DNA of 64,000 nt from positions 64,001 to 128,000 of IMG/VR virus record IMGVR_UViG_3300036790_000419, one strand, 5' to 3'. The stretch comes from a virus. The translations under genes were made by a program, and so were the position numbers. Below, in pieces: positions 8,185 through 29,394 of this stretch; within the stretch, counting starts at the first letter, position 1, and each line of letters starts with the position of its first letter. The notes under the pieces are model-generated. The model was not told the origin of the DNA. It was given only the letters and a program-made list of their open reading frames with translations, and ran no database searches.

Positions 8185-8436
8185 ATGGGCATCGAGGAGA
8201 CGGTAGCGCGACTGCGCGAGGACGTGACCGCCGCCCAGCGCCGGCATGCCGGCGCGGACGCGCGAGCCACTCAGGCTGAGGCGCGCGCGGCGGCGGCCCG
8301 GGAGGACATGCAGGCTGAATTCGGCGTGAGCACCGTGCCGGCGGCCCGGCAGCGGCTCGCTGACCTGGAGCGGCAGCTTGAGGAAGAGGCGGCCGGGGTG
8401 CGCGAGCAGCTCGAACTAGCGGGAGGCACAGTATGA
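8185..8436 (+). CDS. 83-aa coiled-coil protein (possible Rad50 middle segment)
   Basis: MGIEETVARLREDV... heptad pattern. Confidence 0.7.
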   Translation: MGIEETVARLREDVTAAQRRHAGADARATQAEARAAAAREDMQAEFGVSTVPAARQRLADLERQLEEEAAGVREQLELAGGTV

Positions 8437-9590
8437 GCGAGGCTCCGGGCAAGGCTGACTACGGCTCGCTGGAGTTCACCGCGCGGAGGTTCCAGATCGC
8501 GCAACTGGCTGAGTGGGCGCTGCCCGCCGTCCCGTCGTCGCCGACCCTGGCGGTGAACGGCTGCTTCCAGGTCTCAGTGAGCCCGGAGCGGCTGCGCGTG
8601 GCGGCCACCGACCAGCAGACCGCCGTCTTCGCCGAGGTGCCGGCGGTCATCACGCAGTCGACAGGCGAGGTTTTCATCCCCGCGCGGAAGCTGCGGGCCA
8701 TCCTGGCCGAGGCCTGCGAGGGCGACGTCACTATCGCGGTCAAGGGCAGTACCGCGCTGGTGACCGCGGGCCCGTCCACCTGGAGCCTGCGCCTGCCGCC
8801 CCCGGACCGTTACACGGGGCTGCCGGACCTGGCCGCCGCCAGCTTCGCCCCCGTCAGTCGCGAGGTGCTGCTGACAGCGCTGGGCACGGTGCGGCACGCG
8901 GTCGGCAAGGACCAGGGGCGCCCGACGTACACCCAGGTCCGCGTCGGCCCTGACAGCGACGGAACGTTCGCCTGCGCGGCCTCCACCAGCCAGTTCGCCC
9001 GCGCGCCGGTGCCCGGCTTTCCCGGTGAGATGCTCATCCCCGGGCACGCGCTCGATGACCTGGTCAAGCTCCTGTCTAAGGTTCCGGTGGACAACGCTGA
9101 GGTGGCCGAGGCAGGGCCGTACGCGGTGTTCCGCGCCGGGGAGGTCACGCTGGCCGCGCTGCGGGTGGCGAAGAAGTTCCCGGACGTCGGCCAGTTGTTC
9201 CTGCAGCAGGTTCAGGGCAACGACATGGTGCTGAAAGTCGACCGGGAGCAACTGACCGCCGCGCTGCGCCGGGTGCGGATCAATTCCGACGCGAGCACCT
9301 CGGCGGTCGCGCTCATCGCCGACGACGGCCGGCTGACCGTCACGTCCCGGGACAAGGACGCCAGCAGCGCCGAGGAGGTCATCCCGGCGGCGTGGGAGGG
9401 CGGCCAGCGCATCCTGGTCGTCAACGCGGTGTTCTTGCTGGCCATGCTCGCCGCGCACCCGTCGGCCACCTGCGACTTCCGGGTGGGCAAGGACCGCGGC
9501 AAGGCCCGCGCCCCCCTGGTGCTGGAGGACAGCGAGAAGAAGGTCACCGGGATCTGCACGTCGATGCCCCCGGCACTGGTGGGCTATTAG
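8433..9590 (+). CDS. dnaN: DNA polymerase III beta sliding clamp
   Basis: 385 aa; ATD, IPARKL, FPDV, LTAALRRV patterns. Confidence 0.85.
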   Translation: MSEAPGKADYGSLEFTARRFQIAQLAEWALPAVPSSPTLAVNGCFQVSVSPERLRVAATDQQTAVFAEVPAVITQSTGEVFIPARKLRAILAEACEGDVTIAVKGSTALVTAGPSTWSLRLPPPDRYTGLPDLAAASFAPVSREVLLTALGTVRHAVGKDQGRPTYTQVRVGPDSDGTFACAASTSQFARAPVPGFPGEMLIPGHALDDLVKLLSKVPVDNAEVAEAGPYAVFRAGEVTLAALRVAKKFPDVGQLFLQQVQGNDMVLKVDREQLTAALRRVRINSDASTSAVALIADDGRLTVTSRDKDASSAEEVIPAAWEGGQRILVVNAVFLLAMLAAHPSATCDFRVGKDRGKARAPLVLEDSEKKVTGICTSMPPALVGY

Positions 9591-9607: not shown

Positions 9608-10054
9608 ATGAGTTACCCGCACTTTTCCGGGGACTGCGACGAGTACCACGAGCTGGTCCGCGACTTCGGCGGCGAGCGCCCGCGCATTGTGTGCCTGTGC
9701 GGCTCAACGCGGTTCTACGCGCAGTTCCAGGAAGCGAACTACCGCCTCACCATGCAGGGCGAGATCGTCCTGTCTGTCGGGTTCTACCCGCACGCGGCGG
9801 CTGAGCACGGTCACGGCGAGGGCGTGGGGCACGACTCGGCGGAGAAGGTCTCGCTTGACGAACTGCACAAGCGCAAGGTCGACCTGGCCGACTACGTGTA
9901 CGTCGTGTCCGAGGGCGGCTACTTCGGCGACTCTACGGCCGGGGAGATCGTCTACGCGGTGAGGAACAGGAAGCAGGTCTTGTTCGCCGAAGAGGTGGCA
10001 CGTGACCGGGCTTACGGGATGGGCTTGCTCGGAGTTGCGCCGGTGAGCCCTTGA
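9608..10054 (+). CDS. Nucleoside 2-deoxyribosyltransferase-like protein
   Basis: CLCGSTRF, LHKRKVDLAD, GYFGDST.GEI.YA. Confidence 0.65.
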   Translation: MSYPHFSGDCDEYHELVRDFGGERPRIVCLCGSTRFYAQFQEANYRLTMQGEIVLSVGFYPHAAAEHGHGEGVGHDSAEKVSLDELHKRKVDLADYVYVVSEGGYFGDSTAGEIVYAVRNRKQVLFAEEVARDRAYGMGLLGVAPVSP

Positions 10055-10704
10055 CCGACCTCGCCGCGCTCGCCGATGCGGTCCAGGCCACCCGCCGGAA
10101 CCTGGACCGCCAGGCGGGCCGCGCGCAGCAGGTGGCCGAGGCCGGCCTGGCGGCCGAGGCTGAGATCGCGCGCCTTGAGGACCTGGCCGGCGTCTGCGCC
10201 AGGACCGCCGCCCTGCTGACGACGATCGGCGAGGAGCGGCAGGAGAGCGCCCGGCAGGCGTTCGAGGACCTGGCGACGCGGGCGCTGCGGGACATCTTCG
10301 GCGAGGACCTGTCGTTTCACCTGGTGCCCGGCGAGACGGGCGGCCAGGTGACCCTGGAGCCGGTTATCCGGTCGGAGTTCGGCGGCGAGGTCCTGGAGAC
10401 CAGCGTGCTCGACGCGCGCGGGGTGGGCATGGCAGTCGTGGTCGGCTTCGTCCTGCGGCTGGTCATGGTGCTGCTCAGTCCGCAGGCACGCAAGGTCCTG
10501 TTCCTGGATGAGACGTTCGCGTTTGTCAGCGCTAGCTACCGGTGCCAGCTGGCCCGGTTCCTGCGTGAGGTGGCCGGCGAGAACGGCGCGCAGGTCGTTA
10601 TGATTACCCACGACCCGGTCTACACCGAGGAGGCCGACGTGCTGGTGCGCCTGGCTCTCGGTCCGGACAAGGTGACCCGGGTGTTCGAAGGGGAGAGTGA
10701 GTAG
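10051..10704 (+). CDS. Rad50/SbcC-like ATPase, C-terminal half
   Basis: Coiled coil, variant signature ARGVG, Walker B LFLDE, H-loop MITH. Confidence 0.82.
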   Translation: MTDLAALADAVQATRRNLDRQAGRAQQVAEAGLAAEAEIARLEDLAGVCARTAALLTTIGEERQESARQAFEDLATRALRDIFGEDLSFHLVPGETGGQVTLEPVIRSEFGGEVLETSVLDARGVGMAVVVGFVLRLVMVLLSPQARKVLFLDETFAFVSASYRCQLARFLREVAGENGAQVVMITHDPVYTEEADVLVRLALGPDKVTRVFEGESE

Positions 10705-10706
10705 CC

Positions 10707-11000
10707 GTGCCGCTGCCAGGTGAAGGCCAGGTGGCCGAGTTCGACCGCGAGGCGGCCCGCAACGTGGTCCGGTGCGTCGTTCTCGCGGCGGACAGCGAGA
10801 TCCGGCGGGCGCCGGTCCCGTTCAGCAGCGTCCGCAACCCGGACGGCTCGCGGCAGGCTGAGACGCAGAGCGAGCGCGAAACCCGGCTGGTCCGCACGGC
10901 GGTCATGCACCTGCTGGAGCAGGGCCTGGTGGTGCTCCCGCCGGACATCGCGGAGATGCTGGACGACTGGATTCCCCTTGAGCGCGCTGGGACGGACTAG
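10707..11000 (+). CDS. Hypothetical protein
   Basis: SD gggag, abuts neighbours. Confidence 0.6.
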   Translation: MPLPGEGQVAEFDREAARNVVRCVVLAADSEIRRAPVPFSSVRNPDGSRQAETQSERETRLVRTAVMHLLEQGLVVLPPDIAEMLDDWIPLERAGTD

Positions 11001-13963
11001 TGACCGGCCGCAGCCCTGACTCAATCGCCCGGTGGCTGGACGGGAATCTGTTCCGGTTCGACGGCCCGTCCCAGATGCTGGGCACCGAGCCGAACGCCGC
11101 CCGCCGCCCGTGGGACGCGGCGAAGACCCGCTGGCTGCTCGCCGCGTCCTGGGACTACAGCCAGGCGGCCGGCAACATGGCGATCCCCGCCGTCTACGAC
11201 GCCATCCACAAGGCGGGGACGTACAGCCTGGCCGACCGCTGGTACCTGCCTGCCACCCCGCGCGACATGGACCTGCTGGAGCGCGGCCAGGTGCCGGCGT
11301 TCGGCATCGAGAGCCGGCGCCAGGCGCTCGACTTTGACGTGGTGGCCACCAGCATCTCCTACACCGTGCTGTTCATGAACTTCTGCAAGACCCTCTCCAT
11401 GAGCGGTATCCCGCTGCGCTGGGAGGACCGCGCGGGCGACCCGGGGGCTTACCCGATGGTCATGGCCGGCGGCCAGGCCTACTGCGCGCCCGAGTTCATG
11501 GCCCCGGTGGCAGACTGCGTATGGCTGGGTGAGGCCGAGGACGAGCCCGGTAACCCCGGCATGGCCGCGGTCTGCGAGGCCATCGCCCAGATGAAGGCGG
11601 ACGGCCTGTGGCGCGAGGAGCGGGCGCTGTGCTACCGGATGCTGGCCCGCGAGTTCAACTTCCTGTACTTCCCGCGCTTCACCGCCGTGGACTACCGCTA
11701 CGAGGACCGCGGGCTGCCTGAGCTGACCAAGATGGTGTCCGGCTACCGCTCGCTGCTGCCGGGCGTCGGCCCGCGCTTCAAGGCCAGGCGGGTGGTCAGC
11801 CTGAATAACGCGGACCTGATGACGTCCGCGCCGGTGCTGTTCGCCGACCCCGGCATGGGCTCGGGCGACGTCGAGGTAGCGCGCGGCTGCCCGGCCTGGT
11901 GCTCGTTTTGCCGTCTCTCGTGGGCCACCAAGCCCTACCGGCAGGAGGACACGGCTCGCTCGCTGGCTCGCGCGAAGACGTGGCGCGACAACATGGGCAG
12001 TACTGACATTTCCCTGGTCGCCCCTGACCCGCCTATGCACACCCAGATGAAGAAACTGGTCGCCGGGCTGCTGGAGAACGTCACCGGCAAGGTGGACGCG
12101 TCCAGCATGCGGATCGATGACTACCTCAGCGACCCGGACCTCTCCCTGCTGCTGCAGGTCTCGGGCACCACCGCGCTCACCCTCGGCCTGGAGGCCGGCG
12201 CGCAGCGGATACGCGACCTGGCCGGCAAGGGCACCAGCGACGACGACGTGGCGAAGGCGGTCACGGCGGCGATCCGGGCCGGCATCAGGAAGATCAAGAT
12301 CTACTTCATCACCAACTGGCCGGGCGAGGAGCAGGCCGACGTGATGAAGGTGGTGGCCCTGGGCAAGCGCCTGGCTGACATCCGTGACAGCTTTGGCGAG
12401 GCCGCGGCCGGGGTGCAGATCATCTTCTCCTGGACGCCGCTGCTGATCGAGGCGCAGACCCCGCTGCAGTGGTTTGCCGTCACCCCGCCGGACTACATGC
12501 TGCAGCAGGCGCTCGACGAACTCCGCGATCACCGGATCTGGGTCAAGATCGGCAGCAAGGCGTCGCCGCCGAAGCTGGCGTTCTTCCAGGCCTGCCAGCG
12601 AGCGAGCCGCGACGCGGGCGAGGCGATCGTAGACGTTATCGAGAATTACGGGACGGCTTCATGGGGCGGCTTCCCGAAGGACATGCGGGAAAAGCTCGAC
12701 GAGGCGATGAGAGTTCACGGTTTCCGCAACGGGCTCGACGACATATTCGGCGAGCGGTTCTACGAGGACCTGCTCGGCTGGGAGATGATCGACACCGGCG
12801 TGAAGCGCTCCCTCATGTGGCGGGCCTACCGGGACATGGTGGAGCTGCTCGAAGGCACGGACGCCGGGACTTACGACAGTGATATCCCCGAGGGATATCA
12901 CGGCAACGAGTGGGTGCCGCGCTGCGACCAGCAGTGCTCGGGCAGTGCGTGCGGGGTGTGCGACCGCGGCGACCTGGAGCTGCGCCGCGAGTACGTTCAG
13001 GCCGTCGACCGGGACCTGGCTGCCGACCCGGTGCGCCCGCTCGACCAGTCCACCGTCGCGCAGCGCGTCCGGCTGCGGGTGGAGCGCCCGGAGGTGTTCC
13101 GCTTCGTCACCGGCACGTTCCTGGAGTACGCGATCCGCCGGGCCGCCTACCGGGCGCACCGCGACGGGTTCCCCGCGCTCGCCGCCGAGTCGGTGCGCCT
13201 GGTGTCGGCGGGAACCGGCTACCGCGAGCGCAGCGCCGGCGTCGACTATGCCGAGTTCGGCCTGACCGCGCCCGCCGACGGTGACGCGGTCGGCGAGTTC
13301 CTGGCCCGCATGGCAGTGCACGTGCACCCGCACTTGCACTGGAGCGGGAACTACGCGGTGCTCCCGGCGGCGGCGAAGCTGCCCGCGCGCCCGGTCGGCC
13401 TGTGGGAGCTGGAGGTGGCCGACGACCCCGCGGTCCTCGCCCGGCGGCTGCGCTGGTGGGACGAGGCGGAGGCGGTGCCGGTGCTGATCCGCGCGGACAG
13501 CTTCTACGCCGGCACGACCGCCGGGCCCGGCGACGCCAAGGAGCACGTCACTGATTTCTGGGTGACCCGCGACGGGCAGCGGACCGTGCTGCGCATGCTG
13601 CTGAACGGCCGGCTCGGCCCGTACCAGGCGTACGCCGCGCTGTCCGGCAAGGCCAGCTGGCTTGAGGCCGCGCGTTACACCGCCCGCCGACTGGAGTTCT
13701 TCAGCGGCGGCGCTCAGCCGTGCGAAGGGTGCGGGCTGCCCGTGCCGGCCAGCCTGCTCGACGTTCCCTGGAGCGAGCGGTTCTGCCCGCGCTGCGGCGA
13801 CGCAGCCGAAGGGAAGGTTACCGCGGCGCTCTCGGGCGCCGGCGTATTACAGGTACCTGCCTTACGCACACCCTGTGGAGGAACCTGTGGATACTCCCGG
13901 ATACCGGAAGCCCGCTCACCAGTACGGCCAGCCTTACGGCACCTCGCCGGGGGCCGGCGATAG
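11000..13963 (+). CDS. Radical SAM protein (TIGR03960-like) fused to DUF2344-like domain and zinc ribbon
   Basis: CPAWCSFC CxxxCxxC; FGIESRR..DFDVV, AGGQAYCAPE, WLGEAE; QRVRLRVERPEVFRFV..AIRRA; CEGC..CPRC. Confidence 0.82.
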   Translation: MTGRSPDSIARWLDGNLFRFDGPSQMLGTEPNAARRPWDAAKTRWLLAASWDYSQAAGNMAIPAVYDAIHKAGTYSLADRWYLPATPRDMDLLERGQVPAFGIESRRQALDFDVVATSISYTVLFMNFCKTLSMSGIPLRWEDRAGDPGAYPMVMAGGQAYCAPEFMAPVADCVWLGEAEDEPGNPGMAAVCEAIAQMKADGLWREERALCYRMLAREFNFLYFPRFTAVDYRYEDRGLPELTKMVSGYRSLLPGVGPRFKARRVVSLNNADLMTSAPVLFADPGMGSGDVEVARGCPAWCSFCRLSWATKPYRQEDTARSLARAKTWRDNMGSTDISLVAPDPPMHTQMKKLVAGLLENVTGKVDASSMRIDDYLSDPDLSLLLQVSGTTALTLGLEAGAQRIRDLAGKGTSDDDVAKAVTAAIRAGIRKIKIYFITNWPGEEQADVMKVVALGKRLADIRDSFGEAAAGVQIIFSWTPLLIEAQTPLQWFAVTPPDYMLQQALDELRDHRIWVKIGSKASPPKLAFFQACQRASRDAGEAIVDVIENYGTASWGGFPKDMREKLDEAMRVHGFRNGLDDIFGERFYEDLLGWEMIDTGVKRSLMWRAYRDMVELLEGTDAGTYDSDIPEGYHGNEWVPRCDQQCSGSACGVCDRGDLELRREYVQAVDRDLAADPVRPLDQSTVAQRVRLRVERPEVFRFVTGTFLEYAIRRAAYRAHRDGFPALAAESVRLVSAGTGYRERSAGVDYAEFGLTAPADGDAVGEFLARMAVHVHPHLHWSGNYAVLPAAAKLPARPVGLWELEVADDPAVLARRLRWWDEAEAVPVLIRADSFYAGTTAGPGDAKEHVTDFWVTRDGQRTVLRMLLNGRLGPYQAYAALSGKASWLEAARYTARRLEFFSGGAQPCEGCGLPVPASLLDVPWSERFCPRCGDAAEGKVTAALSGAGVLQVPALRTPCGGTCGYSRIPEARSPVRPALRHLAGGRR
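13843..13849 (+). promoter_or_regulatory. CGTAGTA-class element (CGTATTA)
   Basis: Upstream of the 13887 operon. Confidence 0.4.
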
Positions 13964-14036: not shown

Positions 14037-14256
14037 GCCGCTAGTCGAGCGGGGTGCCGGCTGTCCTTACTGCGGCGGTTCCGCCGAGCCCGAGCAGGAC
14101 GGCGACGTCGTGTACTTCGCCTGCCCGGCGTGCGAGGGCGAGTTCGGCCACCGCAAGGCTGACCGGGGCACGTTCTGCGCGGCCGGCCTGCCCGTTGCCG
14201 GGCCACCGCCCGGCCCCCCGGTCATCGCGGCCACCATCAGGAGGAGACCCGAGTGA
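14020..14256 (+). CDS. Zinc-ribbon protein (Lar-like CPYCGG)
   Basis: CPYCGG...CPAC; TTG start after ggag. Confidence 0.6.
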   Translation: MTSLPEPLVERGAGCPYCGGSAEPEQDGDVVYFACPACEGEFGHRKADRGTFCAAGLPVAGPPPGPPVIAATIRRRPE

Positions 14257-15401
14257 GCGAGCCCCTGCACCTGAAGTACCGGCCCCGGACGTTCGCCGAT
14301 GTCGCCGGGCAGCGCCCGTCTGTCGCCGTCTTGTACCGGATGTGCAAGCTGGGCAGCGTGCCCGGCGGGATGCTCTTCTACGGCGAGCGGGGCTGCGGCA
14401 AGACGACGATGGCCCGGATCGTGGCCAAGGCCCTCAACTGCGAGGCGGGCCCCGGGCCGGCCGGGAGCTGGCCGTGCGGGGCATGCGCGAGCTGCGAGGC
14501 GGTTGACGGCGACACCAGCCCGGACGTGGAGGAGCTGGACGCCGCGAGCAACGGCGGAGTCGAGCAGGTCCGGGACATCCGCACCAGGGCCTACTACGGC
14601 GCCGTCGGCGGCGGCCGGAAGGTCTACATCGTCGACGAGGCGCACGGCCTGTCCGGGCCCGCGTTCGAGTCCCTCCTGAAGGTCCTGGAGGAGCCGCCGC
14701 CCGGCGTGGTGTTCATCTTGGTCACCACTCAGCTCAGCGCTATCCCCCGCACGGTGCGCAGCCGGTGCAGCCCGTTCCGGTTCGACCCGCTGCCAGTCGG
14801 GGTCATCCGGGACCGGCTGGCGGCCATCTGCCAGGCTGAGGGGACCGCCGCCGAGCCCGCGCTGCTGACCGCCATCGCCGAGGCCGCCCGCGGCGGCATG
14901 CGCGACGCCGTGGTCCGGCTTGACCAGGTGTCCTCGGTCGGCATCACCTCGCTGTCCATGTGGCGCGAGCTGACCGGGGAGACCGATTTCGCCCCTGCCC
15001 TGCTGGCCGCGGCGGCTGACGGCGACCCGGGGGCCATGTACGCCGCGATGGACCGCGCGCTGGCCACGTACGGCGACCCGGGGCAGGTCGCCCGCGAGGT
15101 CGTCTTCTGCCTGCGCGACCTGCTGGTGCTGTCGTGCGGCGCCGACGTCGCCGCGCAGGGCGAGGCGCTGGCGGCCCGCCGCGAGCTTGCCGGCCGCCTC
15201 GGCGTGCCCCGGGTGCAGGCGGCGATGGCCGTGCTGTGGGACCTGCAGACCAGGACCCGGGTTGATGACCGGGAGACCGCCCTGACCCTCGCGCTGTCCG
15301 TGGTCGCCCGGAAGCTGGGCCAGCAGCCCCCGCCGATTGCCGCCAGCGGGAGCCAGAAGGCCTCCTTTGATGAGATCAAGGATGCCCTGGGGGCACTGTG
15401 A
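14253..15401 (+). CDS. dnaX: DNA polymerase III gamma/tau clamp loader
   Basis: KYRP.TFADV.GQ, GERGCGKTT, ELDAASN, IVDEAH, LLK.LEEPP, SRC. Confidence 0.95.
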   Translation: MSEPLHLKYRPRTFADVAGQRPSVAVLYRMCKLGSVPGGMLFYGERGCGKTTMARIVAKALNCEAGPGPAGSWPCGACASCEAVDGDTSPDVEELDAASNGGVEQVRDIRTRAYYGAVGGGRKVYIVDEAHGLSGPAFESLLKVLEEPPPGVVFILVTTQLSAIPRTVRSRCSPFRFDPLPVGVIRDRLAAICQAEGTAAEPALLTAIAEAARGGMRDAVVRLDQVSSVGITSLSMWRELTGETDFAPALLAAAADGDPGAMYAAMDRALATYGDPGQVAREVVFCLRDLLVLSCGADVAAQGEALAARRELAGRLGVPRVQAAMAVLWDLQTRTRVDDRETALTLALSVVARKLGQQPPPIAASGSQKASFDEIKDALGAL

Positions 15402-24357: not shown

Positions 24358-24430
24358 AGGGACGTAGTTCAGCGGCCAGAACGGCAGCTTCCAACACTGC
24401 GCGCCGGGGGTTCGAGTCCTCCCGTCCCTG
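24358..24430 (+). tRNA. tRNA-Trp(CCA)
   Basis: Cloverleaf, loop ttCCAac, C31:A39, G73. Confidence 0.8.
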
Positions 24431-24728
24431 CGACCGTCAGCAACGGCGAGAGCCCGCGCAGGCGCATGTCAATGCAGCTTGAGAACTCCACAGCGTGAGC
24501 ATCAGCGGCGGGCGCCATCCCGTCGCACATGACTGGCAGCCGGGTGCGCTCACACCGTGCCCGGCTGCCGATCAACGCCCGGTTCACGGCATGCCGTGAC
24601 GATGGGCAAGCACCGTGCCGTCCGCCGGCCTCCGGGCTCGCGTTCCACCGTAGGGGTGTGCGGCCTGGCTCCGGCCAGGTGGCGGCGGTACTTGGTGTCA
24701 AGAGTTTTTGCACGATATGCAAAGCAAT

Positions 24729-24801
24729 GGGGCCTTAGCTCAGCTGGTAGAGCATCTGCTCGGCAGACAGAAGGTCGGGGGTTCGATCCCCCCAGGCTCC
24801 A
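24729..24801 (+). tRNA. tRNA-Ala(GGC)
   Basis: G3:U70, loop tcGGCag (C33), C31:A39. Confidence 0.85.
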
Positions 24802-24803
24802 CA

Positions 24804-24874
24804 GCGGCGGGTTGCCGGTTCGAATCCGGTCCGGTCCACGCATGGGCTGGTAGCTCAAATGGACAGAGTGTCGC
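24804..24874 (+). ncRNA. Circularly permuted tRNA-like element (YrlA-like)
   Basis: T arm, then loop-closed acceptor helix, then D arm. Confidence 0.75.
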
Positions 24875-24878
24875 ATCT

Positions 24879-24951
24879 GGGGACGTAGCTCAGCTGGTAG
24901 AGCAGCCGCCTCGCAAGCGGCGTGTCGCGGGTTCGATTCCCGCCTTCTCCA
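24879..24951 (+). tRNA. tRNA-Ala(CGC)
   Basis: G3:U70, loop ctCGCaa. Confidence 0.9.
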
Positions 24952-25107
24952 CTTAGGGCACTACTGCCGCGCGTCGGCCGGCGCAAGGCGAGAGAGGGCA
25001 GCTGACCTCTCTGGTGCCTTACCGTTCACCCGTGCGGTAAAACCGGGGACCAGCGGAGCCGAATGTCCGGGGCACCGGGCTGAGGGTGGGGTAAGCCTCC
25101 GCAACAT

Positions 25108-25185
25108 CGGGGTGTGGCGCAGCTTGGCTAGCGCGCTACGTTCGGGACGTAGAGGTCGTGAGTTCAAATCTCACCACTCCGACCA
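25108..25185 (+). tRNA. tRNA-Pro(CGG)
   Basis: Loop ttCGGga, CCA encoded. Confidence 0.92.
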
Positions 25186-25245
25186 GGATCTCAATGGCTC
25201 AAGTGAGGCGGCAGTAAAGGGCCACGCCCTGCCGGAGATCCGTAA

Positions 25246-25317
25246 CGGGATGTAGTTCAGTGGAAGAGCGCCTGGTTTGGGACCAGGATGTCGCGGGTTC
25301 GAGCCCTGCCATCCCGA
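25246..25317 (+). tRNA. tRNA-Pro(TGG)
   Basis: Loop ttTGGga. Confidence 0.92.
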
Positions 25318-25319
25318 CT

Positions 25320-25390
25320 GCTGGTCAGAGCCGCGTGGCGTGCGGGCCCTTAGCGGGGCACTCAGGGTTCGAGTCCCTGCCTGGTCAGCC
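25320..25390 (+). ncRNA. Degenerate tRNA-like element with shrunken anticodon arm
   Basis: Long terminal helix gctggtcag/ctggtcagc, intact T arm caggg-ttcgagt-ccctg. Confidence 0.5.
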
Positions 25391-25466
25391 GCTCCGGTAA
25401 TAGGGACGCCAGCAGCGGACGCGCGCTGGCGGTCGGTGAAACCCCGTTGCGAATCCGGAGCACCCT

Positions 25467-25539
25467 GGGGCCTTAGCTCAGATGGCAGAGCGCCCGGTTG
25501 AAACCCGGAAGGTCGGAGTCTCGGAATCTCCAGGTCCCG
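25467..25539 (+). tRNA. tRNA-Phe(GAA), aberrant T loop
   Basis: Loop ttGAAac, C27:A43, T loop tctcggaat. Confidence 0.7.
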
Positions 25540-25553
25540 CGCAGTAACACAAT

Positions 25554-25626
25554 GGGGATGTGGCCGAACGGTTACAGGCACTTGCCTTCCAAGCAAGCTA
25601 CGCGGGTTCGACCCCCGTCATCCCCT
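25554..25626 (+). tRNA. tRNA-Gly(TCC)
   Basis: Loop ctTCCaa, U73. Confidence 0.9.
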
Positions 25627-25754
25627 CTGGTACGGGCCGGACTCATACTCCGGTTGCGTGCAAGTAACCGGTCCGCGGCTGTCGGGCTGCGGACCGGGAG
25701 CGCCTGGGCTGCCCGGAGGGGCCGACACCCTCTCCGGGGGCACCAGTACTCAAT

Positions 25755-25826
25755 GCGCCGCGAGCATGTACGGCTATGCAGCGGACTCTTAATCCACGGA
25801 ACGGGGTTCAAGTCCCTGGCGGCGCA
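25755..25826 (+). tRNA. tRNA-Lys(CTT)
   Basis: Loop ctCTTaa, C28:A42. Confidence 0.85.
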
Positions 25827-25870
25827 CTTCACCTGGCTTCGCCGATTTTCGGCAGAGTTCGGTGTTATTC

Positions 25871-25945
25871 GGGCGAGTAGAGCAACCTGGCAGACCCTCC
25901 GCTCCCAAAAAGCGGGATGTGCGGGTTCGAATCCCGCCTCGCCCA
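25871..25945 (+). tRNA. tRNA with CAA anticodon (Leu), short variable loop
   Basis: Loop ccCAAaa (C33), no variable arm. Confidence 0.7.
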
Positions 25946-26049
25946 CGCCGGCTGGCAAGGCCGTCCTGCGAATCCTTGCCCGGCCTCTCCTGTGGGGAGA
26001 GCAAAGGCCGTTACAGGAGGGGGAGAAAAGGCCCCTCCCGTCAATTCAG

Positions 26050-26122
26050 TGGGGTATGGCGCAATTGGCAGCGCAGGTGCGTCTGGTGCACAAGGTTCTA
26101 GGTTCGAGTCCTGGTACCCCAG
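26050..26122 (+). tRNA. tRNA-Gln(CTG)
   Basis: U1-A72, loop gtCTGgt. Confidence 0.88.
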
Positions 26123-26125
26123 CGA

Positions 26126-26198
26126 GCTGGAGAATGCGGGTTCGAATCCTGCCCGGCGAGAGAGATCTCGCCGGTGGCTTAATCGGCAAAGCGCCAGC
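26126..26198 (+). ncRNA. Circularly permuted tRNA-like element (YrlA-like)
   Basis: T arm, acceptor helix closed by GAGA tetraloop, D arm, gctgg/ccagc closing stem. Confidence 0.8.
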
Positions 26199-26234
26199 AA
26201 CCCCGGGCACGGACGGTATCCCGGCCCGGGGCCC

Positions 26235-26308
26235 GCCCTTGTAGCTCATCTGGCAAGAGCGCCCGCCCCGTAAGCGGAAGGTCCCGCGTTCGACTCGCGG
26301 CAAGGGCT
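26235..26308 (+). tRNA. tRNA-Thr(CGT)
   Basis: Loop ccCGTaa (C33), C27:A43. Confidence 0.85.
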
Positions 26309-26419
26309 CGTAGTGTCCCGCCGAAGGCGTCACAGGCCCTCATGCCGGCTCCGTTCCAGGTGCCGTGCGGGGTTCGAGTTCTGCTCGTTTCTCCCTCGAT
26401 CGCGCGTCGCGATCATTAT

Positions 26420-26493
26420 GCCCGGATAGCTCAGACGGCGAGAGCGTATCCCCGGTACGGATGAGGCCCCGAGTTCGATTCTCGGTCCGGGCT
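26420..26493 (+). tRNA. tRNA-Thr(GGT)
   Basis: Loop ccGGTac (C33). Confidence 0.85.
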
Positions 26494-26504
26494 CGCAAGT
26501 TCAC

Positions 26505-26578
26505 GCGGATGTAGCTCAGTTGGTTAGAGCGTGACGTTGCCAACGTCAAGGTCGCCGGTTCGAGTCCGGTTATCCGCT
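26505..26578 (+). tRNA. tRNA-Gly(GCC)
   Basis: Loop ttGCCaa. Confidence 0.93.
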
Positions 26579-26579
26579 C

Positions 26580-26662
26580 GGGTGAGTGGCGTAATGGCAG
26601 CCGCGCACGGTTCAGGCCCGTGTGTCCGCAAGGACGTGAGGGTTCAAGTCCCTCCTCGCCTA
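26580..26662 (+). tRNA. tRNA-Leu(CAG)
   Basis: Loop ttCAGgc, variable arm. Confidence 0.92.
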
Positions 26663-26772
26663 CTTCGAGGTTGTCCACCGTGGCCGCGGGCCGCTGCGCC
26701 TGCCGTGCGAGAGCACGGGTTCCAGGACGGCGGTTAGTTTCCCTGCTAGCGGGAGCGAACGGTGACCTACAC

Positions 26773-26856
26773 GGACGCGTGGCTCAGTGGCTACAGCAGC
26801 GCCCTGCTAAGGCGTACAGGGGTAACCCTGCGGAGGTTCGAGTCCTCCCGCGTCCG
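26773..26856 (+). tRNA. tRNA-Ser(GCT)
   Basis: Loop ctGCTaa, variable arm. Confidence 0.92.
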
Positions 26857-26941
26857 CTTCTGCGCCGGATACCAGCCGAGTCCGTCAGGTGGTGACGCAG
26901 GCGCAGTGCCCGTGGGGGACGGCAACCCGCGACGGGCGCCC

Positions 26942-27029
26942 GGAAGCGTAAGTCGAGCCGGCCTACCGACAGCGGTCCCGAAAACCGTGAGGGGTAACTC
27001 CCGTGTGGGTTCGAGTCCCACCGCTTCCT
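26942..27029 (+). tRNA. tRNA-Ser(CGA)
   Basis: Loop ccCGAaa (C33), variable arm. Confidence 0.85.
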
Positions 27030-27196
27030 CCGCACATGATTGAGGCGGCACCCACGGGCCGCTTGCGGGTACCGCCTCAATGTGTAATCAGCCAGGCTGG
27101 TGATCCAGTCCAGAAGGAAGGAACCACGTGCCTTTACGAGCAGCCTAGTTTACTGCTCGCGTTCGCAAGCATACGCACAGTCACAGTGATTGTCGA

Positions 27197-27273
27197 GGGC
27201 GGGTAGCTCAGCAGGTTGGAGCACTTCCCTGATAAGGAAGAGGCCGCTGGTTCGATCCCAGCCTCGCCCACCA
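27197..27273 (+). tRNA. tRNA-Ile(GAT)
   Basis: Loop ctGATaa, CCA encoded. Confidence 0.93.
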
Positions 27274-27274
27274 C

Positions 27275-27349
27275 GGCGGTATAGCTCAGCCGGTGAGAGC
27301 GCCCCGCTCATAACGGGAGAGGCCGGGGGTTCGAGCCCCTCTACCGCTA
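27275..27349 (+). tRNA. tRNA-Met/Ile2(CAT)
   Basis: Loop ctCATaa, C27:A43. Confidence 0.85.
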
Positions 27350-27350
27350 C

Positions 27351-27424
27351 GGGCCGCTAGCTCAACTGCGCAGAGCGGCTGACCTTTAATCAGCGGGTTC
27401 GGGGTTCGAGTCCCCGGCGGCCCA
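27351..27424 (+). tRNA. tRNA-Lys(TTT)
   Basis: Loop ccTTTaa (C33). Confidence 0.88.
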
Positions 27425-27432
27425 CTAGCCTG

Positions 27433-27588
27433 GTGCGCGTGAGGAACCTCGCGCTCCGGGCAGCTGAGCGCCTGCACGTCATCTTCGACGCCGTCCCGGT
27501 TTACGAGGACGAGCGGTGGTACAGGTACGGAGACTGGGGCTGCCGGGCGTCCAACTGGGTGCGCCGGCAGCGGAACAAGCGCCGGTAG
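27433..27588 (+). CDS. 51-aa protein inside the tRNA array
   Basis: Coding-like codons; stop overlaps 5' end of tRNA-Arg(TCT). Confidence 0.4.
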   Translation: MRVRNLALRAAERLHVIFDAVPVYEDERWYRYGDWGCRASNWVRRQRNKRR

Positions 27589-27655
27589 CTCAGTCGGACA
27601 GAGCAGGCGGCTTCTAACCGCCAGGCCGCGGGTTCGAGCCCCGCCTGGCGCACCA
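27579..27655 (+). tRNA. tRNA-Arg(TCT)
   Basis: Loop ctTCTaa, CCA encoded. Confidence 0.93.
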
Positions 27656-27658
27656 CAC

Positions 27659-27731
27659 GGTCCTGTCGTCTAGCGGCCCAGGATGCCTGATTCTCGATCA
27701 GGTCGCGCGAGTTCGAATCTCGCCAGGACCA
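27659..27731 (+). tRNA. tRNA-Glu(CTC)
   Basis: Loop ttCTCga. Confidence 0.9.
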
Positions 27732-27825
27732 CGCAGAGCCTGCTACGCGGGAGACGGCCATTGCCAAAGCAGGTACTCTGAGGTCCGCGCCGGGAGCTGG
27801 CTGAAATCCGCTCGGCAGGACGCAA

Positions 27826-27899
27826 GCCCCTCTCGACTAGCGGTCCAGGTCGCCTGCCTTTCAAGCAGGATGACACCGGTTCGAATCCGGTGGGGGGAA
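27826..27899 (+). tRNA. tRNA-Glu(TTC)
   Basis: Loop ctTTCaa, G1:A72 mismatch. Confidence 0.85.
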
Positions 27900-27930
27900 C
27901 GAGGGCCTCCGGGGTAACCTGGGGGCGCGA

Positions 27931-28008
27931 CGCGGAGTAGGGGAGTTCGGTTGTCCCCGCGGCGCTTTCATAACGCCGAGATCGCGGGTCCGAATCCCGC
28001 CTCCGCCA
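27931..28008 (+). tRNA. Initiator-like tRNA-Met(CAT) with 9-nt anticodon loop
   Basis: C1:C72 mismatch, loop ctttCATaa, T loop TCCGAAT. Confidence 0.7.
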
Positions 28009-28099
28009 CGAGGCCCGGCACTGGCGGCCGGCGAAAGCCCCGGGGAATACGTGGCTGGCCCTGCTGGATAAGGGCTAAACAGCCGGGGGCCTCAGTCGA

Positions 28100-28172
28100 T
28101 CCGGCGTAGCTCAATCGGCAGAGCAGCGTCCCGTTAAGGCGAGGGTTCCCAGTTCGAGTCTGGGCGCCGGAG
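28100..28172 (+). tRNA. tRNA-Asn(GTT)
   Basis: Loop ccGTTaa (C33). Confidence 0.87.
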
Positions 28173-28277
28173 CGCGTCAGTCTGGGATACGAGGGGCAGC
28201 AGCCCTGCCGCGGCCCGCGCGGCGGTCGCCGAAGCGGGACGAGTGCCGGGGCTCCCCAGTCAGCCGCCGGCACACAT

Positions 28278-28353
28278 GGTCTTGTAGGGGAGCCTGGCCG
28301 TCCCCGCCGCCCCGTCAAGGCGAAGATCGCGGGTTCGAATCCCGCCAGGACCG
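28278..28353 (+). tRNA. tRNA-Asp(GTC)
   Basis: Loop ccGTCaa (C33), C27:A43. Confidence 0.87.
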
Positions 28354-28377
28354 CTTTCTCACCCGGGGCCGGGGCGT

Positions 28378-28512
28378 TTAGACACCGGAGCGCTTGCGCC
28401 GCTCGCCCAGCTCGGTCCGCCCGAGCCGGTACAGGGCGCGGTAGCCGCCGAGCCTCAGCCCGATCCAGATGCCGGAGCCGAAGGCGATGACCAGGAGGAT
28501 GAAAATGCCCAC
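28378..28512 (-). CDS. 44-aa single-TM membrane protein (not in ORF track)
   Basis: MGIFILLVIAFGSGIWIGLRLGGYRALY...; own promoter. Confidence 0.65.
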   Translation of the reverse strand: MGIFILLVIAFGSGIWIGLRLGGYRALYRLGRTELGERRKRSGV

Positions 28513-28520
28513 GTGATTAA

Positions 28521-28549
28521 ACGGTACCTGGTTCTTTACCAGTGTCTAG
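28521..28549 (-). promoter_or_regulatory. sigA-type promoter with operator
   Basis: TAGACA-16-TACCGT on minus strand; CTAGAC-actg-GTAAAG 28534-28549. Confidence 0.6.
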
Positions 28550-28554
28550 GCACT

Positions 28555-28629
28555 GCCCCTGTAGCTCAACGGGAGAGCGCCGTCTCGACAAGGCGGAGGG
28601 AGGTGGTCCGACACCACCTAGGGGCACCA
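28555..28629 (+). tRNA. tRNA-Val(GAC)
   Basis: Loop tcGACaa (C33), T loop TCCGACA, CCA encoded. Confidence 0.82.
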
Positions 28630-28630
28630 T

Positions 28631-28704
28631 GCACTAGTAGCTCAGCGGACAAGAGCAGCGGCCTACGGAGCCGCGTGGCGGGGGTTCGAGTCCCTCCTAG
28701 TGCA
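28631..28704 (+). tRNA. tRNA-Arg(ACG)
   Basis: Loop ctACGga. Confidence 0.92.
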
Positions 28705-28715
28705 CGCGAGTACAA

Positions 28716-28787
28716 GGGCGCATAGCTCAGCGGAAGAGCGCTCGGTTCACACCCGAGAGGCCGGCGGTTCGATCCCTTCTGCGCCCA
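28716..28787 (+). tRNA. tRNA-Val(CAC)
   Basis: Loop ttCACac. Confidence 0.88.
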
Positions 28788-28788
28788 C

Positions 28789-28863
28789 GGTCGGTATAGC
28801 TCAACGGCAGAGCGCTGGACTGTGGCTCCAGACATACGAGTTCGATTCTCGTTACCAACCCCA
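28789..28863 (+). tRNA. tRNA-His(GTG)
   Basis: G-1/C73, loop ctGTGgc, C3:A70, CCA encoded. Confidence 0.9.
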
Positions 28864-28864
28864 T

Positions 28865-28948
28865 GGCGGAGTGACCCGAGATGGCAAGGGGGCCGGCTGT
28901 AAACCGGCTGCGCGAGCATGGCAGGTTCGAGCCCTGCGTCCGTCACCA
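28865..28948 (+). tRNA. tRNA-Tyr(GTA)
   Basis: Loop ctGTAaa, variable arm, CCA encoded. Confidence 0.9.
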
Positions 28949-28949
28949 A

Positions 28950-29023
28950 GGTCTCATAGCTCAGTGGAACAGAGCACCCGCCTCCGGAGCGGGGGGCCGG
29001 CGGTTCGAGTCCGTCTGAGACCA
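28950..29023 (+). tRNA. tRNA-Arg(CCG)
   Basis: Loop ctCCGga. Confidence 0.92.
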
Positions 29024-29111
29024 CGACTGAGTTCACCGCCGTGACCTGGCAGCGGGTAGCGGTGGGCCAGTAAAGCGGGGCGTGCTGCCGGCTACGCCTG
29101 CCCCGTCCAAT

Positions 29112-29187
29112 GGCGGTATGGCCGAGTGGTACAGGCGCACGCCTGCAAAACGTGCTTACCCGGGTCCGATTCCCGGTGCCGCCTCCA
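29112..29187 (+). tRNA. tRNA-Cys(GCA)
   Basis: Loop ctGCAaa, C31:A39, T loop TCCGATT, U73, CCA encoded. Confidence 0.87.
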
Positions 29188-29188
29188 G

Positions 29189-29261
29189 GACCCTGTAGCT
29201 CAGCGGACAGAGCTGCTTCCCCCTAAGGAGCGAGTCGCTGGTTCGAGTCCAGCCAGGGCCG
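29189..29261 (+). tRNA. tRNA-Arg(CCT)
   Basis: Loop ccCCTaa (C33), A2:C71. Confidence 0.85.
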
Positions 29262-29394
29262 CCTTCGGTGCTCACGCTGTGGCAGCCTGGAGACGGGAGA
29301 CCGGGTACGGGCTCGGCTTCGCGGGTCTGAGATCGTTTCCGGTCTCCCGTCACACCAGGGTACATGCACATCACTGCGTTACGCTGGCCCTATT

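Follow-up and report, generated by a model that had tools for sequence, protein, structure and literature searches.

What does a phage do with a radical S-adenosylmethionine (SAM) enzyme of almost a thousand residues, and on which molecule does this enzyme act? The question is raised by a gene in a 64,000-nt stretch of DNA (the window) that comprises bases 64001-128000 of IMGVR_UViG_3300036790_000419, a 148.9-kb IMG/VR record of a soil phage with an estimated completeness of 98%. The window has a GC content of 70% and its credible genes are all located on the + strand, to which every coordinate below refers. Positions 11000-13963 form one open reading frame (ORF; protein P0001) of 987 amino acids (aa) with a GC content of 0.91 at third codon positions. 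It encodes a TIGR03960-like radical SAM protein fused to a DUF2344-like domain and a zinc ribbon. A first-pass annotation had regarded it as a candidate RNA-modifying enzyme, possibly one that modifies or edits the 33 tRNAs of the phage. Judged by its sequence, the protein represents a divergent, fused variant, restricted to viruses, of the bacterial pair of TIGR03960, a cobalamin-type radical SAM protein, and TIGR03936/DUF2344. That it modifies nucleic acid, and RNA more likely than DNA, is our preferred reading, although we put its chances somewhat below even.

The N-terminal half

The protein matches TIGR03960 (rSAM_fuse_unch) of NCBIfam with an E-value of 1.4e-54 and 185.6 bits, whereby residues 17-611 align to positions 4-577 of the 605 model positions. 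This score stays below the curated cut-off of 462.3 bits; distant viral relatives reach 127-280 bits. Three characteristics of TIGR03960 are found in the phage protein. The first is a radical SAM core that is preceded by a Radical_SAM_N2 domain. The N-terminal domain (residues 65-208, positions 11192-11623; PF19864, E 2.2e-22) is of the Rossmann type and B12-binding-like. The core (residues 292-452, 11873-12355; PF04055, E 7.6e-15) carries the CxxxCxxC [4Fe-4S]/SAM motif C297-x3-C301-x2-C304 (11888-11911). The second is a Cys-rich motif, C642-x3-C646-x4-C651-x2-C654 (12923-12961), located at the joint of the two halves, where the phage sequence RCDQQCSGSACGVC aligns with canonical PCNRACSG--CGA. 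Since this second Cys cluster aligns with the Cys-rich CxxxCxxC-type motif that ends canonical TIGR03960 proteins, it is ancestral. It is a candidate auxiliary Fe-S or Zn site. The third is the DUF2344 partner, here a fused and remote homologue. The CxxxCxxC motif and the TIGR03960 blocks pointed out in the first-pass annotation are thus borne out, though below the cut-off. No match to the protein was obtained in PHROGs.

In an alignment of 34 homologues C297/C301/C304, C642/C646/C651/C654 and four further Cys near the C-terminus (C908/C911/C929/C932) are invariant. The mean column identity of 57% amounts to strong purifying conservation.

The model of residues 1-660 (pLDDT 79) finds its best structural matches among cobalamin-type radical SAM enzymes, namely MgmA (E 2.1e-9), OxsB (6.8e-7) and TsrM (1.8e-6), followed by AprD4, TokK and CysS; next in rank are MiaB/MtaB and RlmN, which modify RNA. 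MgmA (9ccb) is also matched by the sequence profile, and weak hidden Markov model (HMM) similarity is seen to several class B radical SAM families.

These structural neighbours fit a substrate outside nucleic acids. MgmA acts on a protein, TsrM on an amino acid and OxsB on a nucleoside phosphate, and AprD4, TokK and CysS act on antibiotic precursors. The phage enzyme might likewise act on a protein (e.g. of the replisome or the ribosome) or on a small molecule, with DUF2344 as a structural or regulatory partner. The C-terminal half argues otherwise, as described below.

The C-terminal half

Direct HMM searches gave no match of the C-terminal half to DUF2344, neither at E ≤ 1 with the whole protein in Pfam nor at E ≤ 10 with the C-terminal half in NCBIfam or with the whole phage genome. 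Nor did any other family of the Pfam, NCBIfam or PHROGs libraries match this half directly. For this half, 22 sequences (residues 612-950) of related viral loci were aligned and converted into a profile (A2). Among 1.84 billion cluster representatives it matches only 136 proteins, nearly all of which are ~900-1000-aa fusions, their fragments or longer intein-bearing forms. One protein of 265 aa (P0223) bridges the two families, as it is hit by the phage-type profile (E 1.5e-18), PF10105 (E 4.7e-10) and TIGR03936 (E 9.4e-12). It is a singleton and could not seed the canonical DUF2344 set; the canonical sequences were taken from Faecalibacterium-like records.

The phage-type C-terminal domain (profile of 211 sequences) was aligned with canonical DUF2344 using hhalign, resulting in a probability of 95.2% and an E-value of 2.5e-8. 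The match spans 193 columns, corresponding to positions 4-209 of 215 and hence to the whole canonical domain. A probability of 95% is obtained only with such broadened profiles, while A2 against a single canonical sequence was not significant (Prob 1.3%). An ESM Atlas model compared with bacterial TIGR03936 clusters reached TM-scores of 0.60-0.62 over 201-213 residues; searching the ESM Atlas by features gave no usable match. Taken together, the C-terminal half is supported as a remote homologue of DUF2344/TIGR03936, and the region so labelled in the first-pass annotation can be kept in this form. According to the model, the structure matches and hhalign, the domain extends over residues ~685-907 (13052-13720).

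The AlphaFold2 model of residues 612-950 (pLDDT 80.5, pTM 0.80) was compared with known structures in an exhaustive search. The top dozen rows consist exclusively of pseudouridine-synthase-fold proteins. TruA is matched with Z 10.7 (rmsd 3.2 Å over 192 residues), Pus10 with Z 10.6 and Pus1 with Z 9.9; Pus3 (Z 9.0) and TruB (Z 7.7) are further matches. Foldseek also retrieves TruA (E 1.1e-4, prob 1.00). The pseudouridine-synthase-like fold, which the first-pass annotation had ascribed to DUF2344, is thus confirmed in the predicted structure. This is in line with the Pfam clan treatment, where PseudoU_synth_1 and DUF2344 represent a split of the pseudouridine synthase domain (PMC7955657).

A loop equivalent to that with the catalytic Asp of pseudouridine synthases was placed by topology, not by residue-level superposition. 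It contains invariant S736, R742 and G747 and no R-x-D motif. An acidic residue (D/E) is found at position 743 in 30 of the 34 homologues and at 749 in all of them. Canonical DUF2344 reads GFNPH at the equivalent position.

The domain is followed by the zinc ribbon C908-x2-C911...C929-x2-C932 (13721-13795), which the first-pass annotation had already recognised and which has no counterpart in canonical DUF2344. It is an addition of the viral branch; the canonical 214-aa DUF2344 ends before this position.

Domain architecture, folds and homology are direct results of these comparisons, and they bear on the reading with a protein or small molecule as substrate. Both the pseudouridine-synthase fold and the zinc ribbon are typical of nucleic-acid binders. 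Moreover, several Arg of the C-terminal half (R691, R701, R713, R714 and R742) are conserved in the 34-homologue alignment. We therefore consider a substrate outside nucleic acids very unlikely.

The cellular pair and RNase E/G

To evaluate the context of the cellular family, 41 genomes of the phylum that includes Faecalibacterium were sampled (G002-G041 among them). Of these, 38 encode DUF2344, 34 encode RNase E/G and 32 encode both. In each of these 32 genomes the RNase E/G gene is located less than 1.5 kb downstream of DUF2344 on the same strand. This very tight linkage points to RNA processing and is the strongest available functional clue for the cellular family. It also argues against a protein or small molecule as substrate, although the operon region of the bacterial family also includes ribosomal protein genes. 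No paper on a linkage of DUF2344 and RNase E/G was found in the literature.

A canonical adjacent pair of radical SAM and DUF2344 genes is also seen in L025 (MT836750.1) and L026 (MT839369.1). Both are GenBank records named 'Bacteriophage sp.' from human faeces and look like fragments of a Faecalibacterium chromosome. They also hold a YlqF-type GTPase, RNase HII, threonine synthase and M23 and M50 peptidases, and their proteins show up to 100% identity to Faecalibacterium clusters.

Distribution, gene order and inteins

The phage protein has more than 400 homologues of ~950-1000 aa. Many are encoded on contigs of 120-155 kb, and all examined contigs are viral. A search of 185,579 species genomes of bacteria and archaea did not find the phage-type gene and thus gives no prophage or host clue. 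Among the phages in GenBank, none matched at the DNA level and just five weak matches were obtained with the protein; the records concerned look like pieces of a Faecalibacterium chromosome with the canonical pair.

The gene order is conserved in a particularly strict manner. All 23 IMG/VR loci (43-81% identity) show the succession metallophosphatase, PD-(D/E)XK nuclease, DnaN clamp, ATPase (phrog_15167), radical SAM enzyme and clamp loader. The clamp, ATPase, radical SAM and clamp-loader genes are also retained in viral relatives with ~25% identity, whose contigs have a GC content of 40-55% and carry portal genes close by. Conservation and synteny are, like the architecture, established directly.

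Inteins with LAGLIDADG and Hom_end domains interrupt many of the homologues (P0002, P0054, P0061, P0096, P0112, P0123, P0129-P0131 and others; e.g. the insertion at L020:10897-11918). The CxxxCxxC motif is the main hot spot, with sites at ~297-307, i.e. directly before C301 or C304 or nearby. Other sites are ~398, 518-524 and 650, the latter within the second Cys cluster, and additionally ~68, ~131 and ~176. Up to three inteins are found per gene (P0129, 2062 aa); the copy in the window has none. The strong conservation of the gene and the homing of inteins into its catalytic motifs show that it is functional and matters to these phages.

In the window, the DnaN-type sliding clamp is encoded at 8433-9590 (assigned by family match) and the ATPase of 217 aa at 10051-10704. 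The latter belongs to phrog_15167, a group of ~200-aa proteins (see also L029:2141-2746 and L030:2163-2789) with a weak ABC/AAA_21-like Walker B region. Even in distant relatives its gene invariably comes after that of the clamp, and the protein may represent an unrecognised clamp-loader or clamp-associated subunit. Next comes an ORF of 97 aa (10707-11000) with no family match. Its TAG stop codon overlaps the GTG start codon of the radical SAM gene by a single base (10998-11002, CTAGTGACC), and this overlap suggests translational coupling of the two.

At its other end, the radical SAM protein carries a tail of 37 non-conserved residues (951-987, positions 13850-13963), as seen from the 34-homologue alignment; most homologues end near residue 950. 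A subset of homologues has a common 'GVLQ(V/G)' immediately past residue ~950, which might reflect either a moved stop codon or a conserved DNA or RNA element at this site. A gap of 290 bp separates the ORF from the gene of the clamp loader (14253-15401), which is similar to DNA polymerase III gamma/tau and was assigned by family match and synteny. Methyltransferase and glycosyltransferase genes are located downstream of the radical SAM gene.

The tRNA array

The window contains 33 tRNA genes in an array at 24358-29263, 10.4 kb from the radical SAM gene. Position 33 of tRNAs is nearly universally U. Ten of the 33 phage tRNAs have C33 instead (Ala-GGC, Leu-CAA, Thr-CGT, Thr-GGT, Ser-CGA, Lys-TTT, Asn, Asp, Val-GAC and Arg-CCT), so that both the count and the C-for-U anomalies given in the first-pass annotation hold. 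C33 also occurs in related arrays, in 5 of 10 tRNAs in L014 and 4 of 9 in L018.

Three T-loops (Val-GAC, the tRNA with anticodon TCA, and Cys) read GGTCCGA, with C at the expected U55. The TCA tRNA (27931-28009) was labelled SeC by ARAGORN. As its anticodon would read UGA, it may be an opal suppressor or Trp-like rather than a true selenocysteine tRNA.

The first-pass annotation had connected enzyme and array: the enzyme would modify or edit the tRNAs of its own phage and thereby explain or compensate the C33 and C55 anomalies. The C-terminal half indeed resembles the tRNA enzymes TruA, Pus10 and TruB in fold, and C33 is frequent in the three arrays. Eight enzyme-bearing records, including that of the window, hold ~31-38 tRNA genes or candidates. 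Moreover, tRNA precursors are known to be processed by RNase E/G, next to which the cellular family is encoded.

However, co-occurrence of enzyme and tRNAs within a single clade is not independent evidence, and it breaks down in two relatives. In G042 (143.5 kb, 100% complete) the enzyme gene is present, interrupted by an intein, along with 0 tRNAs; in G044 (93% complete) it is accompanied by 2 tRNAs. The enzyme is hence not dependent on a phage tRNA array. Such a lack of correlation between the two is what the first-pass annotation itself had named as a refuting observation. In addition, the gene lies inside the replication module and apart from the array. The chemistry does not fit either. 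Conversion of C to U is a hydrolytic deamination, and we know of no radical SAM enzyme that deaminates C to U. C-to-U editing of the phage tRNAs by the enzyme was rejected on these grounds and because of the tRNA-less relative G042. Changes of the anticodon loop in phage tRNAs, C33 included, are already explained as escape from host tRNA nucleases (PMC10264068). In sum, action on the phage tRNAs in particular seems highly improbable. The enzyme and the C33 anomaly are separate and should therefore be studied as independent features of the window.

RNA or DNA as substrate

Setting the tRNAs of the phage aside, RNA is favoured in general because of the pseudouridine-synthase fold of the C-terminal half and the RNase E/G linkage of the cellular family. 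To our knowledge, all characterised proteins with this fold bind RNA. The layout of Rossmann-type domain, radical SAM core and nucleic-acid-binding domain, which parallels that of MiaB/RimO, fits this as well. The earlier proposal of an RNA-modifying enzyme thus remains the best general reading once it is worded as nucleic-acid modification, probably of RNA, and stripped of its specificity for the tRNA array. We adopt it tentatively, at somewhat less than even odds. A nucleic acid as substrate is most likely, but it is an inference, as are the preference for RNA over DNA, the type of chemistry and the role of the second Cys cluster.

We propose that the N-terminal half, i.e. the Rossmann-type domain and the barrel with the C297/C301/C304 cluster, would cleave SAM to the 5'-deoxyadenosyl radical and perform the chemistry. 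By analogy to the closest structural relatives this would most likely be a C-H functionalisation, e.g. a methylation. The C-terminal half with its pseudouridine-synthase fold and zinc ribbon would grip the nucleic acid and offer one nucleotide to the radical SAM site, and the Cys cluster at the domain joint would bear an auxiliary metal centre. The substrate would most likely be RNA, either a stable RNA of host or phage or one that is synthesised at the replication fork. The enzyme would be expressed alongside the replisome genes, with no specific tie to the phage tRNA array.

Several points weigh against RNA modification. A shared fold is not a demonstrated function, and a literature search for DUF2344, TIGR03960, TIGR03936, PF10105 and PF19864 yielded no paper on function. 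RNase E/G was not found in the phage, the neighbours of the gene differ from those of the cellular family, and it is not located near RNA genes. Moreover, the radical SAM gene stays fixed between clamp and clamp loader from 81% down to ~25% identity and on contigs of 40-72% GC, a synteny that favours a link to the replisome or to DNA. Complex prediction of the phage clamp with residues 612-987 gave a score of 0.43 compared to 0.00 for the best control, which is weak support for docking. In the calibration, 58 of 80 solved complexes attained the docking mark, compared to 2 of 110 mismatched pairs. With scores ≤ 0.60, only 7 of these 80 complexes and both mismatches attained it; by this calibration, so weak a pass is more often false than true, except for a pairing with a high prior likelihood. 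At least 56% of the contacts agreed between the docking runs and the partner pLDDT was at least 66; an interface is not reported.

Based on this, the protein could dock on the clamp and modify or repair new phage DNA, e.g. by altering bases, through radical C-methylation or otherwise, so that the DNA is shielded from host nucleases. The pseudouridine-synthase fold would then serve as a base-flipping DNA-binding module. The invariant order from the PD-(D/E)XK nuclease to the clamp loader and its persistence in distant relatives would fit, as would the predicted docking and the methyltransferase and glycosyltransferase genes downstream. The same holds for the inteins, which are typical of replication genes. 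However, we know of no pseudouridine-synthase-fold protein that acts on DNA, and the cellular sister family is tied to RNase E/G and not to replication genes. Furthermore, the gene order within a single lineage may mirror the timing of expression instead of function. We thus regard DNA as substrate as rather doubtful.

RLEFF (residues 897-901) was considered as a free clamp-binding peptide and rejected. It forms the last β-strand of the folded domain (pLDDT > 90, buried in the model) and corresponds in the alignment to strand LRTKFL of canonical DUF2344. Being a high-confidence strand of a folded domain, it is not a free docking peptide, which also counts against the DNA reading.

The most far-reaching reading is an enzyme that is tethered to the replisome on the phage clamp and uses its pseudouridine-synthase-fold domain to flip out a nucleotide, either of nascent DNA or of an Okazaki-fragment RNA primer, and to mark it chemically. 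We regard this as unlikely. If true, it would represent an undescribed, replication-coupled radical modification of nucleic acid common to a large uncultured phage lineage.

Comparison with known systems

Of the bacterial enzyme pairs with unassigned function, that of TIGR03960 and DUF2344 is one of the more widespread, as illustrated by its presence in 38 of the 41 sampled genomes of one phylum. A large phage lineage retains a fused, intein-laden version of it as a fixed part of the replication module. The compact single-chain form of the phages is a handy entry to biochemistry, and a substrate found here would give the whole family a function. A new radical modification of nucleic acid, employed in the conflict of phage and host, might come to light as well.

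The TIGR03960/TIGR03936 pair is the closest known system. The order of the parts is the same, with Radical_SAM_N2, radical SAM core, Cys-rich C-terminal motif and DUF2344 fold, and both halves are homologous, the second one being pseudouridine-synthase-like in either case. The bacterial partners are adjacent or fused, whereas the phage halves are normally fused, apart from a few short forms or stand-alone C-terminal domains (P0223). What sets the phage type apart is the additional zinc ribbon with its four Cys, a larger second Cys cluster and insertions of ~20 aa. Its neighbours are clamp and clamp loader, in contrast to RNase E/G in the bacterial pair.

Pseudouridine synthases (TruA, Pus1/Pus3, Pus10 and TruB/Cbf5) share the fold of residues ~685-924, with 190-200 residues aligned at 3.2-3.7 Å. 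However, the identity is 6-11% and no pseudouridine-synthase family of Pfam or NCBIfam is matched. Moreover, the phage domain is fused to a radical SAM enzyme, which is the case for no known pseudouridine synthase.

The class B radical SAM enzymes MgmA, TsrM, OxsB, TokK and CysS as well as AprD4 resemble the N-terminal half in Rossmann domain and barrel (Foldseek E 2e-9 to 5e-5, prob 1.00), but with TM-scores of only 0.34-0.54. Cobalamin binding by the phage protein is putative; AprD4 has a B12-type domain without cobalamin. None of these enzymes has a pseudouridine-synthase-like domain and none acts on a polynucleotide.

MiaB/RimO/MtaB and RlmN/Cfr, finally, appear analogous in layout, consisting of an N-terminal Rossmann-type domain, a radical SAM core and a C-terminal nucleic-acid-binding domain. 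MiaB and RlmN are also structural matches of the N-terminal half (4e-4 and 1.4e-3). The nucleic-acid-binding domain of MiaB/RimO/MtaB is TRAM, as opposed to the pseudouridine-synthase fold predicted here, and the phage protein has neither the UPF0004 three-Cys motif nor a family-level sequence match to this group.

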